In this document: one piece after another, positions 7,316 through 38,474 of the stretch | Position numbering within the stretch: position 1 is the stretch's first letter | Layout: the number at the start of each line of letters is the position of its first letter | Source: Narcine bancroftii | Lineage: Eukaryota | Length of the DNA: 64,000 bases | Assembly: GCF_036971445.1 (NCBI RefSeq) | Contig: NC_091471.1 | Location: 202,430,001-202,494,000 of the forward strand | Direction of reading: 5' to 3' | Program-made: the position numbers and the translations under genes | Notes under the pieces: model-generated | What the model was told of the DNA's origin: nothing | What the model saw: the letters and a program-made list of their open reading frames with translations, nothing else | Databases searched by the model: none

Positions 7316-7969
7316 AGATGATTCCAGCCATTTAAACCCATGCCGCCCAAATAAAACCCCAAATTAACCTACAACCCCGTACATTTTGAAGGATGAGTGG
7401 AAACAAGAGCACCTGGGGAAAATCCATGCAGACATTGAGAAAACATACAAACTTCTTATAGACAGCACTGGATTCAAACTCGGGTACAAGCATTATAATA
7501 TTATAACAGCGCTGGATTCAAACTCGGGTACAAGTGTTATAATATTATCACAGCGCTGGATTCAAACTCAGGTACAAGCGTTATAATATTATCACAGCAC
7601 TGGATTCAAACTTGGGTACAAGCATTATAATATTATCACAGCGCTGGATTCAAACTCGGGTACAAGTGTTATAATATTATCACAGCGCTGGATTCAAACT
7701 CGGGTACAAGCATTATAATATTATCACAGCGCTGGATTCAAACTCGGGTACAAGCTTTATAATATTATAACAGCGCTGGATTCAAACTCGGGTACAAGTG
7801 TTATAATATTATCACAGCGCTGGATTCAAACTCGGGTACAAGCGTTATAATATTATCACAGCGCTGGATTCAAACTCAGGTACAAATGTTATAATATTAT
7901 CACAGCGCTGGATTCAAACTCAGGCACAAGCGTTATAATATTGTCACACTAACAGCAATGCTAAGCATG
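7316..7969 (-). mobile_element. tRNA-derived SINE whose head is expanded into a minisatellite
   Basis: SINE body 7316-7462 and A-box-side head cactaacagcaatgctaagcatg at ~7947-7969 flank the array. Confidence 0.8.
7463..7946. repeat. Minisatellite, 11 x 44 bp (cagcgctggattcaaactcgggtacaagcgttataatattatca)
   Basis: Units start at 7463, 7507, 7551, 7595, 7639, 7683, 7727, 7771, 7815, 7859 and 7903, with only a few substitutions each and no spacers. Confidence 0.97.
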
Positions 7970-9761
7970 AATCATATGTAGCTAAGGAAAGTAAGGGAGG
8001 AAATCGTAGCATCTACTGCTATAGTCTTCCAAACTTCTACGGATCAGTGGGTGCCTCCTGAGACTTGGAAAATTGAAAATGTTACTTCTTGTACCAAAAA
8101 TGGTGCAGAGGTAAGTTCAGTAGCAGATCAGTCAGCTTCAACCCAATGATGGGAAAGGACTAGGTGCAATAAGCAGGAACAAAATTATGCGTCTCTTGTT
8201 CCCGTGTTGTTTGATTAGAGATAACAAGCATAAATTTGTTCAAAGCTAATCCTGTCCAACTCACTTGAGAGCCCGATTTGATGAAGTAACGGAGGGGCTC
8301 AATGAGAGAAATGTAGTTGGTTTGCATGAATTTCCAAAAGGCTTTTGAGAAAATGCCACTGAGGATTTTGTTTTGTTATAAAGATTTAATGACACGCTGC
8401 AGCAAAGGGGATTGTTACAGCATGAGTTTTCTTCAGCAAATGGTTATATTCAATCCTGTTGAGATGAAATAAACAGCACAGCACAATTACATTTCATGGC
8501 AACTATATAGCTGCAAACAGAAACTAATGCAAAATTAAAGATGTGAAGTTATGAAACAGGGTTGAAAAACTTGTCTGAAGGAGCTAAGAATTCTCCTAAT
8601 CTTGTGTTGTACAATTTATAGAATTCACAGGAGAAGCAACATAAGCAAATCTATATCGTCTTCTCCAGCTGGCTGAGGATTTTATTTATCTGTAGGACAT
8701 GACATTTATTGTCACTCTTTAATTAACCCTTGATTTTATTGTCCATTTTGAAGACAAGTCCACATTGGTGGTCTAGACTCAAGGTCACATAAAGGCTACC
8801 AAGGTAGGCAGATTCCTTTACTTGAAGGATATTTGGGGTTTGTACAGTGACCTAATAGCTCATAGCCTTCATTGCATCTTGCTTCTTTTTAAGTTTCAGG
8901 TTTACTTAAATATTGGAATTAAAGTTCCTCATTAGCTGTGAATTTGAACTTGTGTCCTTGAATCTATTCTCTGGACAACTATCCATTAACATAGTCATTT
9001 TACTATTAGACTCCAACTAATATAAGCATTCTAAAGAACCCCACAAAATCCAATCCATATTTTTAAATTCTCAATTGAAATTTAGAATGTTTCTTGCAGT
9101 TTTATTGATTTTATTTTCCCCTCACAAAGCTGGACTGAATAGACGAATATCTTTTTTCACAATAGGAATAAGTATAGTGTGAGTCCAAGCATGTACTTCT
9201 GGGGCCTGGGGTCAAATCCTGCACAGAATAATTGAATGAAGGTTTCTTGTGTTTGGCTGGAAACTGAGAAAGTCTTTGAAAGGACTTTTCGTAGTAGTTT
9301 CAGTCAGTTCCTGATTGGCCCAGATCCATCATGCACAGCTGTTCTCACTTTGGCACTAAATTGGTAATCTCAAGAGGGTTGTGTGGTAGGTAAGGGAAAA
9401 ATGTCACATTGATACAGTTGGGTGTGCTCTTCAGTATGAGTGTTGGAACAGAACAAGAAGGCACTTCAGTTTGCATTGACAAGTGTGGCTTCCCTTAACA
9501 ATGTTCCATTCCCAAGTAATAATTCATTCTTCATCAGCGTAAGAAACACGAAGTAAATGTTGATGTATTTTCAATTAACGGGGAAAATATTTAATTTTCA
9601 CCCAAGGAATGGGAATGATGAGGTGCCATAAAGGGATGGCTCTGTGAGAAGAGGATTCTGTTGAATGGCCTGAAGAAAACTGTTCTTTCAGGCTGCTAAT
9701 TAAGTTAAGAAATAAATTTGTGGTTTAGATTAAATTCTAGATTGAAGTGGCTGGGTATTAG

Positions 9762-13464: not shown

Positions 13465-14513
13465 ATAGATTTTCTTGTTTAGCTGGATTCAGAATTGGCT
13501 TGCCTGTAGAAAGCAGATGGTAGTAGTAGATAGGAAGTATTCTGCATGGAGGTCGGTGACTAATGGAATTCCGCAGGGATCTGTTCTGGGACCCCTGCTC
13601 TTTGTGATTTTTATAAATGAAATGGAGGAAGAAATAGAGGGATGGGTCAGTCAGTTTAAAGATGATATGAAGGTTGGAGATGCTGTGGATAGTGTAGAAA
13701 GTTGTCATATACAACAGGATATAGGCAAGATGAAGAGTTGGGTGGAAAAGTGGCAGATGGAGTTAAATCTGGGTAAGTGTGAAGTGATGCATTTTGGAAG
13801 GGAAAACTTGAAGGCTGAGTACATGATTAATAGCAGAATTTTTAAAACTGTATTAGAAAAGAGGGACCTTGGGCTCCAAATCCATAGATCTCTCAAGGTT
13901 GCTGCTATGGTTAATAAGGTAATTAAGAAGGCTTATGGTATGCTACCCTTCGTTATTCAGGGGATTAAGTTCAAGAGTCATGAGGTAATGTTGCTGCTCT
14001 ATAAAACTCTGGAACATTGTGTTCAGTTCCGGTCGATTCATTACAGGAAGGAAGTGGAAACTGTGGAGAGGATGCACAGGAGATTTACCAGGAAGATGCC
14101 TAGATTGGAGAATTTATCTTATGAGGGATGCTTTTGGGGTTAAAAAGGATGAGAGGGGACTTATTATGTCTACAAGGTTATGAGTGATCAGCCAACACCA
14201 TTCTATTGGGGTGAGAGTAGCAAACACCTTACAAAGTGAGGGGAGGAAAGTCTAGGAGAGATGCTATGGGGATTTCTTTTATATAAAGAGAGTTGTGGGT
14301 GCCTGGAATAGATTAACAAGGATGGTGGTGGAGGCTGGTACAAAAGGGACATTTAAAATCCTCTTGGACTGGCACATGGATGCAGTAACATTAGGGTTAA
14401 GGGTATGAGATAGGGAAGGTTTAGTTTGTTCATTTGGTTAGATTGATCAACATAACATTGAGGGCAGAAGGGTCTATAGCATGCTGTTATTTTCAATTTT
14501 CTATGTTCTAAGT
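13465..14513 (+). mobile_element. CR1 LINE, RT domain to 3' tail
   Basis: ORF 13475..14143 reads WIQNWL..RKQ.V...V.NGIPQGSVLGPLLFVIFIN...F.DD.K...W.EKWQM..N..KC.VMHFG; tail ttctatgttcta. Confidence 0.9.
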
Positions 14514-15526
14514 TGTGATACTACAGATCTATCACCAATGTACATAGTGTATATAGTTACTGTATCTAGACTGTGCTTACAGCGATTGGCTGAGAGCTAA
14601 GCCACACCTATTGTTTGGGCCTTAAAGGGTTGTGTCCCTAGCCAGGTCGGATCATTCCGGACTGGTCGGCCACCTGTGAAGAGCTCCGGTCTTTTGCTAA
14701 TAAAAGCCTTGGTTTGGATCAACAAGTCTTTGGTTCTTTCGACGAGCTCTACAATTTTATTAGCAAAAAGAATTTTGTTTGAAAGGGATGGAGCGTTTAA
14801 CTCGGCCAGAAAAACTTGATATCGACCCACAGTCAGCTACAGCCTTCAAAGCCTTTAACTTCTGGCTGCTGAACTTTGAAAACTTCCTGAGATTCATTCA
14901 GGTAGAGGAGGATAACCAGCGTCTAACAGCATTGCTGTCTATGGTGTCCTTGAGAGTCTACGAGAACATCCAGGATGAGACCACTTACACCGCAGCTATA
15001 AAGGTACTGAAAGGACTGTATGATCAACCGGTGAACAGAGTTCATGCCCGGCTCGTGCTTGCGTCGAGGAAGCAACAGCCCGGTGAGTCCAGCAGGGCAT
15101 ATTTACAAGTATTAAAGGCATTGGGCAAGGACTGTAACTGTGTGGACAAAACTGCTGCCGAGATCACAAACGATCTCGTCCGGGATGCCTATGTGGCTGG
15201 GCTCAGATCGAATGAAGTGAGGCTGCGCTTGCTCGAACAAGGGGTAGAAAAACTAGAGGACGTGGCCCAGATTGCAATCACAATGGAGGATGCAGCCTTA
15301 AAGTCCACCGAGCTCTCTAGGGACTGGACCCCTCGTTCTGATGTGAGTAGAGTGCCCTTCTACCCTACCCCTGACGACCTGTCGGCTGCTGCTACCCTGC
15401 CCCCTGCGAACCCAAAATGTTATTTCTGCGGGAGGGACAAGCACAGCAGGTCCCAGTGCCCAGCAAGAAAAGCCAGGTGCCAGAAGTGCCTTAAAAACGG
15501 ACACTTTGCTGCAGTCTGTAGGTCTA
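14514..15526 (+). mobile_element. Truncated Gypsy LTR retrotransposon: 5' LTR (14514-14753) plus gag, flanked by an 83-bp direct duplication
   Basis: LTR is TG...CA with AATAAA and is homologous to the solo LTR at 33567. Gag follows. 14431-14513 is identical to 15527-15609. Confidence 0.9.
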
Positions 15527-15537
15527 CATTTGGTTAG
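14788..15537 (+). CDS. gag: Gypsy Gag (truncated after two CCHC zinc knuckles)
   Basis: Uninterrupted ORF MERLTRPEKLDIDP...RKQQPGES...LVRDAYVAGL...CYFCGRDKHSRSQC...CQKCLKNGHFAAVC. The last codons come from flanking DNA. Confidence 0.88.
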   Translation: MERLTRPEKLDIDPQSATAFKAFNFWLLNFENFLRFIQVEEDNQRLTALLSMVSLRVYENIQDETTYTAAIKVLKGLYDQPVNRVHARLVLASRKQQPGESSRAYLQVLKALGKDCNCVDKTAAEITNDLVRDAYVAGLRSNEVRLRLLEQGVEKLEDVAQIAITMEDAALKSTELSRDWTPRSDVSRVPFYPTPDDLSAAATLPPANPKCYFCGRDKHSRSQCPARKARCQKCLKNGHFAAVCRSTFG

Positions 15538-15824
15538 ATTGATCAACATAACATTGAGGGCAGAAGGGTCTATAGCATGCTGTTATTTTCAATTTTCTAT
15601 GTTCTAAGTAAAGAGAAAATCTATAAAGAATCTACTACAAACCATATAATGCATATAAACACTCACACAAGTAGTTCAGATGAGTTGCACCAGCCAGGCA
15701 CATTAAAATGAGGTTCCAGCAGTTGAAAAATGCTAATTTTGTTGATGATCCTTCTTCACTAGAGGTAGCAAAAAAAAATAGCACCCATGTGGCCTTTCAA
15801 GCTTACTCAATATCACAAATAATC

Positions 15825-33566: not shown

Positions 33567-33795
33567 TGTGATAGTACAGTTTTTATCACCAATGTGTATA
33601 TGTACAGATGGTAGTGTAGGATGACTGTGATTGGCTGAGAGTGTAGCCACACCTACTGGCAGGTCTTAAAGGATTGCTCCTAGCCAGACCAGGTCATTCT
33701 GGACTGGTCGACCTGTTTGTGATACGCTCCAGTCTTTTAGTTAATAAAAGCCTTGGTTTGGATCAACGTCTTTGGTTCTTTTGACCCGCTCTACA
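33567..33795 (+). mobile_element. Solo Gypsy LTR related to the LTR at 14514
   Basis: tgtgata...gctctaca with shared gattggctgagag and aataaaagccttggtttggatcaac; TSD ctctg/ctttg. Confidence 0.9.
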
Positions 33796-34041
33796 CTTTG
33801 GAAGTTGGAGAAACATTAAATCAACTTTTATTGAATTTAGCATGTTTAATTTCATAATGATGCTGACACATAGTGTTAGTTCATCTGACATCAAAATGTT
33901 TTGCAGCTGATTTTAATTTGTACTCAGTATCTGATGCCTTTTGTGTCAGTGACCAACAGTAGTCGGGCAGCATTAATGAATTCCAGTTGCCCTGATACTG
34001 CTTTTCCATGGTCGCAATGTCCTGGTGAAACTTTTCACCAT

Positions 34042-37000
34042 TGATATGCTCTATCAATGATTCCAAAGCCGTAGAATGAGGAGCAATAGGCTTTATTATA
34101 CTTTAGACTTGTAGCTGGCCCGATTTGACTGAGGACAGGGTGAGGGAGGTTGACCTTTATTCCAGGGTCACAAGGGGAGGAGTTACCAGGGAGCGAGTCA
34201 TCAGTGGGGGACAGGCCAACTACCCATTGATAGTCATATATACATATACTTGTATCACCACATTCACCCCCTCTTTTAAACAAAACCCCACCGGGTTAAA
34301 AGTCCCAGAAGGTCAGCCAGTCGAGTGGTGTCCTTTGCCTCAGTGACCAGCGCAGTTCCACTGGTGGTTCAATGGTCGGCTCCATTGCCAGTTGTGCGTC
34401 TTGAGGCTGGGATGGAGGGCTGGCTCCGTAGGAGGTGGGGCTTGGCTATATGTTTGGGCTGTTGTGGTGGTCGGTGCAGCTGGAGCAGGGTGCGGGGGTA
34501 TGGCGTGGTGGGTGGGGGTGGGTCACTGATCTGCACAGAGTCCTTGACAGGGACAGTATGGGTTTAGGTAGGACCTGGGTTGAAGGGGTGGGGACTGTGC
34601 AGGGGTCTCTGCCATGCGCCAAGTCCCGGATGGGGACCATGTCCTCACGGCTGTCCGGGTACACCATGTAGGCATACTGAGGGTTGGTGTGCAGGAGTTG
34701 CATCTCTTCGACCAACAGGTCAGATTTATGACCCCTCATGTTTCCGCAGCAGGAAGGTTCCCGGGGATGAGAGCCAGTGTGGTAGTGTGTTTCCGGTCGC
34801 CAACGTCCTGGGGAAGGAAAACATGCGTTCGTGTGGGGTTGTGTTGGTAGCGGTGCATAATAAAAATCGATGGCATGGAGTGCTCCCGGCAGGATCTCCT
34901 GCCAATGGGAAACTACCAGGCCTTTGGATTTAAGAGACAGGAAGACAGCTTTCAAACTGTAGCGTTTTCTCTCTCTACCTGGCCATTCCCCCAGGAGTTG
35001 TAACTGGTCGTCCTACTAGTGGCAATGCCTCTAGCCAATTGGTACTGCCACAGTTCGTCACTCATAAAAGGGGTCCCCCGATCACTGTGGAAGTAATTCG
35101 GGTAAATATGCTGTGGAGCACCTTTATGACAGTGGATGAGGTCATGTTGGGACAGGTGATGGCAAAAGGGAACCTGGAGTACTCATCAATGATGTTCAGG
35201 AAGTATACATTCCTTTTGGACAAGGGCAGGGGTCCCTTGAAATCAATGCTGAGTCATTCAAAAGTGCATGTGGCCTTTATGAGGTGCGACCTGTTGGGCC
35301 GGAAGAACTGTGGTTTGCATTCCGCACAGACTGGACAGCGTCTGGTCAATGACCTGACATCCTCAATGGAGAAGGGAAGGTTCGATACTTTCATGAAATG
35401 GAACAATCTCATGACTCCAAAGTGGCAAAGAGTGTCACGGAGGGGCTGGAGGAGGCTGAATTGCATGCTGGCGCAAGTTCTCTGGGTAGGGCATTGGTGG
35501 GGGGGGGGGGGGCGGGGGGGAGATTGTGGGGGGATTGTTGAGCTTTCACAGCCGGTATAGGATATCATAGTTGTAGGTGGAAAGCACGATTCTCTATCTC
35601 AGGATTTTGTCAATTTTGATCTTACCCCACAATTTGGTATTGAACATGAACGCAATGGCTCATTGGTCCATTAGCAGGGTAAATCTCTTCCCAACCAAGT
35701 AATGACGCCAGTGGTGTACCGCCTCAACGATGCCCTGGGCCTCCTTTTCGACAGAGGAGTGCCGCATCTCAGGACCATGAAGGGTGTGGGAAAAGAAAGC
35801 TACTGGTCTGTCTGCCTGGTTGAGAGTATCGGCGAGCATGAAGTCAAAGGCATCGCTTTCCACCTGAAATGGGATGGATTCATCCACAGCATGCATAGTG
35901 GCTTTAGCAATGTATCCTTCAATCTGGGTGAAGGCTTCCAGGGCTTCTGCCGATAAGGGAAAGGTTATGGATCTTACCGGGTGTTAGCCCTTGGGCACTC
36001 CTTGAGCATAATAGTAGGAATCCCAGGAACCTTTTTAGCAGCTTGAGGTTGTGCGGGATCAGGAGTTCCATAAGGGGATGCATAAGGTTGGGGTCAGGGG
36101 CAATGACACCATTTGCCATCGGGGGCAATTACACCATGTGCCACGATGCATCCAAGGAGGGCCAGACAAGTTGTGTTAAAACCACACATGTCCTTGTTGT
36201 AGGTCAGATTGAGGGATTTAGCAGTGTGGAAGAATTTGGCGAGGTTTGCGTTCGTGGTCCTGCTGGTCATGGCCGCAGATGGTGACATTATCTAGAAAGG
36301 GGGATGTGGCTGTCAGTTTGTGTTTGTCACCATCCGATCCACTTTCCTCTTAAACACGGAGTCAGCACTGCTAACTCCGAAGGGTACCCGGAGGAAGTGG
36401 TAGAGCCTGCCATCCTCTTCAAATGCAGTATACTGGCAGTATCCTGGGTGTAGGGGTAGTTGGTGGTATACCAACTTTAGGTCAATGTTAGAGAACACCC
36501 TGTACTGGGCCATCTTGTTGACCATGTTGGCAATCCAAGGAAAGGGATATACATCCAGCTCCCTGAACCACTTGATCGTTTGGCTGTAGTCAATCACTAT
36601 ATGGGGTTTACTTCTGCCTCTGACCACCACGACTTCGGCTCTCCACGGGCTGGAGCTGGGCGCTATGACCCCCTCTGCCAGGAGTCGCTGCACCTCGGAT
36701 TTTATGAATGCCTTGTCCTCAGCACTGCAGCATCTGCTCTTAGTCACTGTAGACTTACAGTCCAGGGTCAGGTTCTCAAACAATGATGGTGGGGGTATGC
36801 AGAGGGTAGAGAGACTGCAGGAGGTGGCTGGCTGTGGGGGGGGGGGGGTCCATGAGTGGGGTTTGTACACAGTGATGAGCAGTGTGGCCCCCCCAAACAC
36901 CATCGTGACATTTCTGAACTGGCTTTGGAAATTCAGCCCCAGAAGGATCGGTGTGCAGATCTGAGGCATTAACAGTAAATAGAAATTGCCATAATGTTTA

Positions 37001-38474
37001 CCACACTCTACAAATGATGCAATACAATAACCGCAGATCTCGGCAGATTTGTCCTTTGTGGCCATTGATATCGTTCCGCTAATTGGTCTGACGGGGAGAG
37101 AGAGTTTGTGAGCAGTGTTCGGGTCGATGAAGCTTTCAGAGCTTCCACTGCCAAACAGGCAGTTAATTTGTTTCCCATTTACCTCAATCTCCATCATCAA
37201 GTGGGTGATCAGGTGAGGGCTGCCCTGATCCAAGATGATGGAGCTAGTACCAAGTCGCCATTGCTGTTGGTGTGGGAGCCGGTTTGGTAAGATGGTGACC
37301 CCCATGTTGACCACGCAGTCTCACCAGGAGAAGTGGATGAAGATGGCAGAAGTGACATCATCCACGATGGCGGAAGTGGAGTTGGGTAAGATGGTAACCC
37401 CTGGGTCACATACGAGTGGAGTCAGGTTCGTAGGCCGACTCCCAGAGGTGCAGGCAGCGCTGCTCGACAGGGGAGGCTTCAACTTACATCCTCTCTTGTA
37501 GTGTCCTTTCTTCCCACATCCCGAGCAAGTGGCTTATCTCGCCTGGCAGCATTGCCAGGGGTTCTTCTGCTGGCCACAGAAGTACCACTTCGGGTGCTCA
37601 GCTGTGGCAGTGGCAGCAGCGGCAGTGGGTCAGGACCCTGTACAGAGGCGGTCTGAAACTCTGTGTCCCAAAATGGCTGCACCTGCGGCCCACACATGGA
37701 GGTCCTGTTGCCGGCAGCGATGGATTCAGTGTGATGGTGGTCTGAATCTTAAGGCTTAGTGAGCTAGAGGGCTCTCTGAAACAGCAACCTGTCTTCCTCA
37801 GTAGTTACTGGCAGATGTAATTGGACCTTACCCTAGCAACGCATGCGTCCCAGATCAGCTCTTCCACATACCGGTCTGCCGATTCTGGGGCTGGGATATT
37901 GCCCCTGTATTCTCACCCAAGACCATGCAAGGCTCAAAAGAAATAGTCCAGAGTCTCACTAGGTTGCTGTTTTCTTGAGGCCAGGAGATACCATGAGTAG
38001 ACTTCATTTACCCATGGTTTATAGAGGTTGCTGAGCTCAGTCATGGCTGTGGAGTAGGTTGTGCTCACAGTAACTTGTGTTTCTTCTCATCAGAGTCCAC
38101 GAGGTCCTCAGAAGTTTCCAGAAATTCTGTGAAGCACTCGATCCACTGCTCGTACAGCTCTGGGGCTCTGGGCGTCTGCAGGTTGAGGTCTAGTCTGTCG
38201 GGTCACAGCAGTTTGTCCATCCCATGTGGAAAAGTTAAAGTATAATAAATTGATAGGCTCTATCAATGATGAAAGTCATAGAGTGAGGAATAATAGGTTT
38301 TATTGCACCTTAGACATAGCTGGCCCAATTCCATGTGTTCGAACAAGAACAGGGAGAGGGAGGTCAACCTTTATTCCAGAGTCACAAGGGGAAGAGTTAC
38401 CAGGGAGCAGGTCACCAGTGGGTGATGGGCCAGCTAACCATTGACAGTCACATATATATACTTGTTTCACCACA
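34042..38474 (-). mobile_element. Full-length but decayed Gypsy LTR retrotransposon (LTRs 38251-38474 and 34042-34262; gag-PR-RT-RH-IN)
   Basis: gag ATG at 38220; PR LFGSGSSESFID; RT IAPSSSPWRA...IDYSQTI...YPFP...IDL...YHQ...VPFG; RH VESDA...RPVAFFS..L...SSVEKEA; IN HH-CC zinc finger. PPT aaaagagggggtgaa; TSD accat/gccat. Multiple stops and frameshifts. Confidence 0.93.

Follow-up and report, generated by a model that had tools for sequence, protein, structure and literature searches.

Conserved pairing between leader and LTR in an animal Gypsy retrotransposon lineage suggests self-priming from an internal primer

The leader of a young Gypsy retrotransposon family in the ray Narcine bancroftii is the exact complement of an arm in its own long terminal repeat (LTR). 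Sequence comparisons show that this pairing is real and lineage-wide. We read it as a variation on the self-priming already known, in which genomic evidence points to an internal primer. Self-priming in some form is very likely. It is also probable, though less firmly so, that the primer site pairs with the 14-nt arm of the element's own LTR and that the primer is a cut 5′ piece of its own RNA, about 52 nt long, of which the last 14 are paired; cleavage and priming themselves we infer. The copy from which we started lies in a 64,000-nt stretch of the Narcine bancroftii genome (NC_091471.1, positions 202,430,001-202,494,000, forward strand), here called the window. LTR positions are also given as r, where r1 is window position 14514 and the arm is r179-192.

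The window copy retains only the 5′ LTR and gag, is about 98% identical to a longer copy that served as coordinate reference, and breaks off at 15526 within an 83-bp direct repeat (Table 1). With one clean LTR end, one broken end and this duplication at its flanks, it looks like a one-ended insertion finished by repair. An initial annotation of this DNA had noted that the LTR end at 14753 is followed by a 1-nt A spacer and by no TGG-type primer-binding site (PBS), that the leader is the exact reverse complement of an LTR segment, that the gag ATG follows 34 nt after the LTR and that a TATA-like sequence lies near ~14622. All of this was confirmed on the sequence (ATG at 14788; TATA-like box CTTAAAGG). 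A perfect 14-mer complement to the fixed leader position would arise by chance anywhere in the LTR with a probability of about 1.7e-6. Folding energy of the whole region does not stand out (z -1.4 for 14640-14800, z -2.35 for 14688-14772); the case draws its strength from position and covariation. The second family said to share this geometry is also present in the window, on the minus strand (34021-38460); its 3′ LTR arm is complementary to its own leader at 14 of 14 positions, and its decayed 5′ LTR arm forms 11 Watson-Crick and two G-U pairs with that leader. The window also contains a solo LTR of a sister family at 33567-33795 (flanks CTCTG/CTTTG) and a 44-bp tandem repeat array at 7374-8036.

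Table 1 Features of the studied copy and of the second family, in window positions
Feature	Position	Strand	Basis
5′ LTR, 240 bp, TG...CA	14514..14753	+	full-length copies whose two LTRs share these ends; 5-bp target duplications
TATA-like box CTTAAAGG	14621..14628	+	box conserved in ray family representatives
Initiator-like TCA+1TTCC; putative transcription start at 14654	14652..14658	+	two independent poly(A)-tailed retrocopies (L450, L443)
Putative self-primer, 52 nt: 38 nt unpaired with primer site, then 14-nt arm	14654..14705	+	start site, arm and predicted cut
Paired arm in R, contains poly(A) signal	14692..14705	+	exact complement of leader
AATAAA, working poly(A) signal	14699..14704	+	18 genomic copies with tails starting just 3′
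Predicted cut AAAA/GCCT	14705..14706	+	RCC after arm in 37/42 families; junction peak there
Poly(A) addition sites, after 14717, 14720, 14723 (r204, r207, r210)	14717..14723	+	5, 9 and 2 of 18 tailed copies; other 2 irregular
1-nt spacer (A)	14754	+	sequence
Primer-binding position (leader), complement of arm	14755..14768	+	sequence
gag fragment, two zinc knuckles, truncated	14788..15526	+	sequence
83-bp target duplication, left copy	14431..14513	+	direct repeat
83-bp target duplication, right copy	15527..15609	+	direct repeat
Second family leader	38236..38249	-	sequence
Second family 3′ LTR arm	34092..34105	-	sequence

The stem was compared across 42 family representatives with 40 distinct arms, hand-picked from metagenome and MAG contigs (most likely eukaryotic DNA) and from the Narcine bancroftii genome; family duplicates, decayed copies and loci without upstream DNA were left out. 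Over 14 positions, leader and LTR arm formed 565 of 588 Watson-Crick pairs while their letters differed between families, against a mean of 365 and a maximum of 410 when partners were swapped (10,000 permutations). Only four pairs were G-U, all four pair types occurred at several positions, and compensatory changes were present. Pairing was found at positions 1-13 in 37 to 42 of the families and at position 15 in 20. The register is likewise fixed, the arm ending in AAA followed by RCC (37/42) and the leader starting one base past the terminal CA. An unselected tally gave at least 11 of 14 pairs in 43/53 metagenome/MAG loci and 87/104 loci of the ray's own genome (shuffled control, 20/1,260). 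Given this covariation and the unselected tally, the stem is a lineage trait kept in register with the LTR end. As candidates for a U5-IR-like inner stem-loop, folding predicts weak inner helices, and many families show by eye a short CCT...AGG hairpin.

We next compared the leader with host tRNAs, using an incomplete set of 32 distinct genes of 15 types. No 3′ end in this set matched it by more than 1 nt, in line with the claimed lack of a tRNA PBS, and ARAGORN found no tRNA within the window. The best internal match, found for the studied family only, was to tRNA-Ile(AAT), which is complementary to 9 nt of the leader (positions 3-11). Priming by a half tRNA-Ile has been described (PMC6317226, in the part available), and Bianca copia elements are predicted to use a tRNA half produced by cleavage in the anticodon loop; tRNA-Ile(AAT) might conceivably serve here in that way. 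We consider this extremely improbable: the match is shorter than the self-match, it starts 3 nt away from the end of the LTR, and sister families do not have it, their leaders having changed in step with their LTR arms. The self-priming geometry proposed in the initial annotation is thus upheld, as are its conservation with compensatory changes and the lack of a tRNA match.

The ends of the transcript could be read from retrocopies in the genome. A tails of 18 distinct LTR copies, three of them preceded by a purine tract, begin just downstream of AATAAA, 13-19 nt past this paired hexamer, and AATAAA is therefore the working poly(A) signal. Two R-only tailed copies, L450 (r141) and L443, come from two sister families and are each flanked by a target duplication; both open with an additional G, after which comes one and the same A of TCATTC. 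Such a G at a 5′ end marks the copying of a cap, and TCA+1TTCC is a sequence that we take to resemble the initiator (Inr) consensus. The other 16 tailed copies begin either at the LTR edge or at sites scattered elsewhere, so the capped start at 14654 is supported by 2 of 18, a small number. This start is 31-33 nt from the TATA-like box, and 13 of 14 ray representatives have a box of the form (T/C/A)ATAAAGG or CTTAAA(G/A)G at 68-86 nt upstream of the arm end. Non-ray families had no TATA box at a fixed distance, and a search for A tails in other ray families found none. On the best reading, R runs from 14654 to about 14720 and the arm begins 38 nt past the cap; the initial annotation, which placed the arm about 40 nt inside R, is borne out by the two capped-type retrocopies together with the conserved TATA box. 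A transcription start at the arm itself was considered and demoted, since TATA distances, fold-back products and tailed retrocopies point upstream.

A classical Tf1-type arrangement would place the transcript start at or just before the arm, through a second start at CAGTC or trimming by a second cut, and give a cap-end primer of 14-18 nt. In 10 of 14 ray representatives the arm region comes immediately after an AGTC, which is initiator-like, as are the G at arm position 10 (38/42 families) and the A at position 11 (26/42); Tf2 has alternative start sites (PMC5341516, in the part available), and one tailed copy, L457, starts at the CAGTC motif just before the arm. However, L457 lacks the extra G, the two cap-type retrocopies have their start 38 nt before the arm, and the 68-86-nt TATA distance is variable in spacing and exceeds the ~45 nt expected of a Tf1-type start. 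We therefore regard this arrangement as unlikely, and favour the internal primer.

Under the internal-primer model, transcription would start at 14654, going by the two genomic fossils, and the arm, as its covariation shows, pairs with the leader, a partner present only at the RNA 5′ end. By analogy with Tf1, reverse transcriptase (RT)/RNase H would cut between 14705 and 14706, and the new 3′-OH would copy the spacer, U5 and the rest of R. The 13-19 nt between the cut and the poly(A) site could supply the homology for first strand transfer. Plus-strand strong-stop DNA would end in a copy of the primer and could fold back on its own arm, an accident that would yield palindromic and inverted inserts. 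The stem would also hide the AATAAA of the 5′ LTR, a plausible side benefit. Its predicted probability in a 200-nt 5′ transcript is only ~0.6.

Inserts that resemble such fold-back products are frequent. The LTR-leader junction motif has 1,785 matches genome-wide, 271 of which (15%) continue into inverted U3; a sister family gave 219 fold-back junction matches, and the backwards control was 0 in both families. Classes were scored on the first-listed 100 loci of the studied family. U3 is copied to r1 in 69 of these, and both ends lie at r1 in 24, 18 of them with an exact 5-bp duplication. These 18 are palindromes of the 433-bp type (e.g. L242, L243, L247, L261, L266, L267), made up of the LTR, an A, and the inverted arm and U3. 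They need a single strand that ends in primer-site sequence, folds onto its own arm and is extended, and plus-strand strong-stop DNA with a copied arm-type primer would give such a strand. Because a 52-nt RNA primer cannot template U3 to its end, as in the 69 loci, fold-back of DNA is needed.

A second class has junctions between the loop and internal sequence of the element. With two duplicates and six copies of an inversion that recurs at r210 set aside, 37 such junctions were counted, and 8 of them fell at r192/193 (any-window p 0.0015). This peak matches the predicted cut, although it could equally arise if a host nuclease nicked a DNA hairpin at the edge of its loop. A third class comprises partial inverted copies, hand-curated to 17 events by leaving out two repeats of one event, two loci of another subfamily and indel artefacts. 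Fifteen reach no further than 58 nt from the arm end, 12 of them ending at 38-58 nt, which brackets the mapped start (52), with ends blurred by microhomology. Three partial copies run past the start (75 nt, 113 nt and, in L221, ~67-73 nt), and the pattern is weaker in the older sister family. DNA fold-back can, on a folding prediction, explain the partial copies too, if RT pauses at a DNA hairpin of -7.5 kcal/mol that spans 14642-14665 (r129-152). The fold-back fossils thus support the self-priming model and fall short of proof. Two further observations concern these inserts: in L302 and L303, two copies of one event, the arm side of the junction runs into the purine tract and pol, as though the arm of the 3′ LTR had served as primer on the PBS; and the sister family forms tandem arrays (L292-L295, L382) in which an LTR and a partial inverted copy together repeat every 278 bp.

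Given how often fold-back lengthens the complement, the stem complement might itself be a by-product, without any role, of repeated DNA fold-back or template switching. Yet such events destroy the leader, and the intact families, found in rays and in marine metagenomes, have a stem of 13-17 nt at a single position and no second primer site. We hold this origin to be highly improbable.

The initial annotation had also proposed that the stem could suppress premature polyadenylation in the 5′ LTR. Because the signal is usable 45 nt from the cap within the LTR, as the R-only tailed copies indicate, the 5′ LTR needs some repression, and the predicted pairing fits: the first five bases of AATAAA have predicted unpaired probabilities of 0.11-0.38 in the 5′ context and 0.90-1.0 in the 3′ context. 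For the studied family, masking as an added role is about an even call on these predictions. As a lineage-wide function the proposal did not stand. Twenty-nine of the 42 arms carry AATAAA or ATTAAA, but 13, on several separate branches of a within-lineage tree, keep the stem without the hexamer, three of these families exposing it in the loop, and masking is therefore not the conserved reason for the stem. Nor would masking need a strict register to the LTR end or the near-absence of G-U pairs. With no other primer site present, it is very unlikely that the stem is solely an HIV-1-like occlusion hairpin and that something else primes.

These strands can be linked into a single novel reading that we offer tentatively, at somewhat less than even credence: the 14-bp stem would be a switch in an animal Gypsy lineage that is widespread, lies outside the chromoviruses and often has a YxDN RT. 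The stem would hide the 5′ signal; a cut just 3′ of it would free a capped ~52-nt primer, remove the signal from the template and start reverse transcription. Failure, by fold-back of strong-stop DNA, would produce integrase-inserted 433-bp palindromes, an undescribed class, and these palindromes together with LINE-made retrocopies would record the start, cut and poly(A) sites.

The family is young and has recently been very active. Forty scored hits are 99-100% identical, 13 of 14 complete LTR pairs are identical, and 16 of 17 fetched copies have a 5-bp target duplication, with a purine tract before the 3′ LTR; six of the 17 keep a single uninterrupted gag-pol frame of at least 1,400 codons. 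Ty3/Gypsy membership follows from the pol domain order after gag (PR-RT-RH-IN by Pfam), TG...CA LTRs, the polypurine tract and the short target duplication, and the best PDB match of the RT is Ty3 RT (E 1.5e-51). Inspection showed a compact single ORF and a Gag with two zinc knuckles, in which Pfam recognised no family and ESM Atlas gave generic gag-like clusters only; in pol, Pfam had no match to a chromodomain or SH3_Tf2-1 at E 0.01. A filed Narcine bancroftii protein is identical across RT-RNase H, and relatives at ~59-81% occur in other rays, sharks, Trichuris, Actinostola and many metagenome contigs, with none in the viral contig collection. A genome search for chromovirus-type outgroups gave short, decayed matches, and contigs from four RNA runs cover the element, without start or end information.

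Several side observations concern the proteins. YxDN replaces YxDD as the RT motif in 95 of 119 parsed proteins, as YLDN in the studied family (P0002); in the second family of the window the motif lies at about 36300 on the minus strand. In Ty1 the equivalent change, D211N, lowered the polymerase rate 223-fold and abolished transposition, which RNase H suppressors partly rescued (PMC2148107, in the part available); a literature search turned up no paper on natural YLDN elements. Element lengths differ between copies, and an Ala-rich tandem repeat between Gag and protease (P0002, residues ~320-430) appears to vary in copy number. Annotated BRCA1 and collectin-10 isoforms of Narcine bancroftii (P0124, P0125) include the Gag of this family at 96-98% identity and are either LTR-promoter chimeric transcripts or annotation artefacts. 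Eight GTDB bacterial MAG contigs (L127-L134) contain this eukaryotic retrotransposon, probably through host contamination.

To our knowledge, self-priming is proven only for fission-yeast Tf1, with the cap-end 11-mer as primer. The Tf1/sushi group carries a chromodomain at the integrase C-terminus. Like Tf1 and Tf2 of Schizosaccharomyces pombe, Tj1 and the Tf1/sushi group, the present family has no tRNA site and a PBS that complements its own R, and as in that group the 3′ end of the arm faces U5. In Tf1 the first 11 bases pair with the PBS and RNase H cuts the primer free (PMC7175516, PMC4600332, PMC5341516, each in the part available). That primer is thus a fully paired cap end, whereas the arm described here is 14 nt long, lies 38 nt past the mapped start and carries the poly(A) signal; the family further differs in having two zinc knuckles, the RT motif YLDN and no match to a chromodomain or SH3_Tf2-1. 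We did not file it in Tf1/sushi because it lacks both the cap-end primer, on a start mapped from few copies, and the chromodomain.

As far as the available part of PMC6317226 goes, self-priming has been predicted from LTR-PBS complementarity in 12% of plant elements, including Tcn1 (gypsy) and TAR, Houba and Osr-1 (copia). These resemble our family in that self-priming is deduced from complementarity; they belong to other lineages, and that part gives no evidence on start sites, poly(A) overlap or fold-back. The plant predictions, copia included, show that self-priming extends beyond Tf1/sushi and make a further self-priming lineage less surprising. RNA structure is one accepted way of repressing a promoter-proximal AAUAAA, as in HIV-1 (PMC5961354, in the part available), where the polyA hairpin is local and present at both RNA ends and priming is by tRNA. 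In our family, in contrast, the stem partner lies outside the LTR, which makes the stem 5′-specific and places it at the primer position. The names Mag lineage and Cigr-1 clade follow PMC6238403 and PMC3601003, in the parts available; the readable supplementary files of the former held no sequences with the family's motifs. In general features our family resembles the Mag lineage and the Cigr-1 clade, with a compact single ORF, short LTRs and two Gag zinc knuckles. Mag elements are tRNA-primed, whereas the present family is without a tRNA site. The open-access literature, with Repbase and GyDB outside its scope, yielded no account of this lineage's priming or of fold-back inserts, and the fold-back by-product is undescribed in what was searched. 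Some Repbase entries reportedly mention self-priming for fish Gypsy families.

If the model is true, the use of a partly paired internal primer with the poly(A) signal on it would show that self-priming can do without the cap end and can be coupled to 3′-end control. Rays, sharks and marine invertebrates carry the lineage in abundance, and it would be mis-scored by annotation tools that rely on finding a tRNA site. Fold-back inserts are a new source of near-perfect palindromes, with hundreds in the Narcine bancroftii genome, and they show that genome sequence by itself can be searched for reverse-transcription intermediates.
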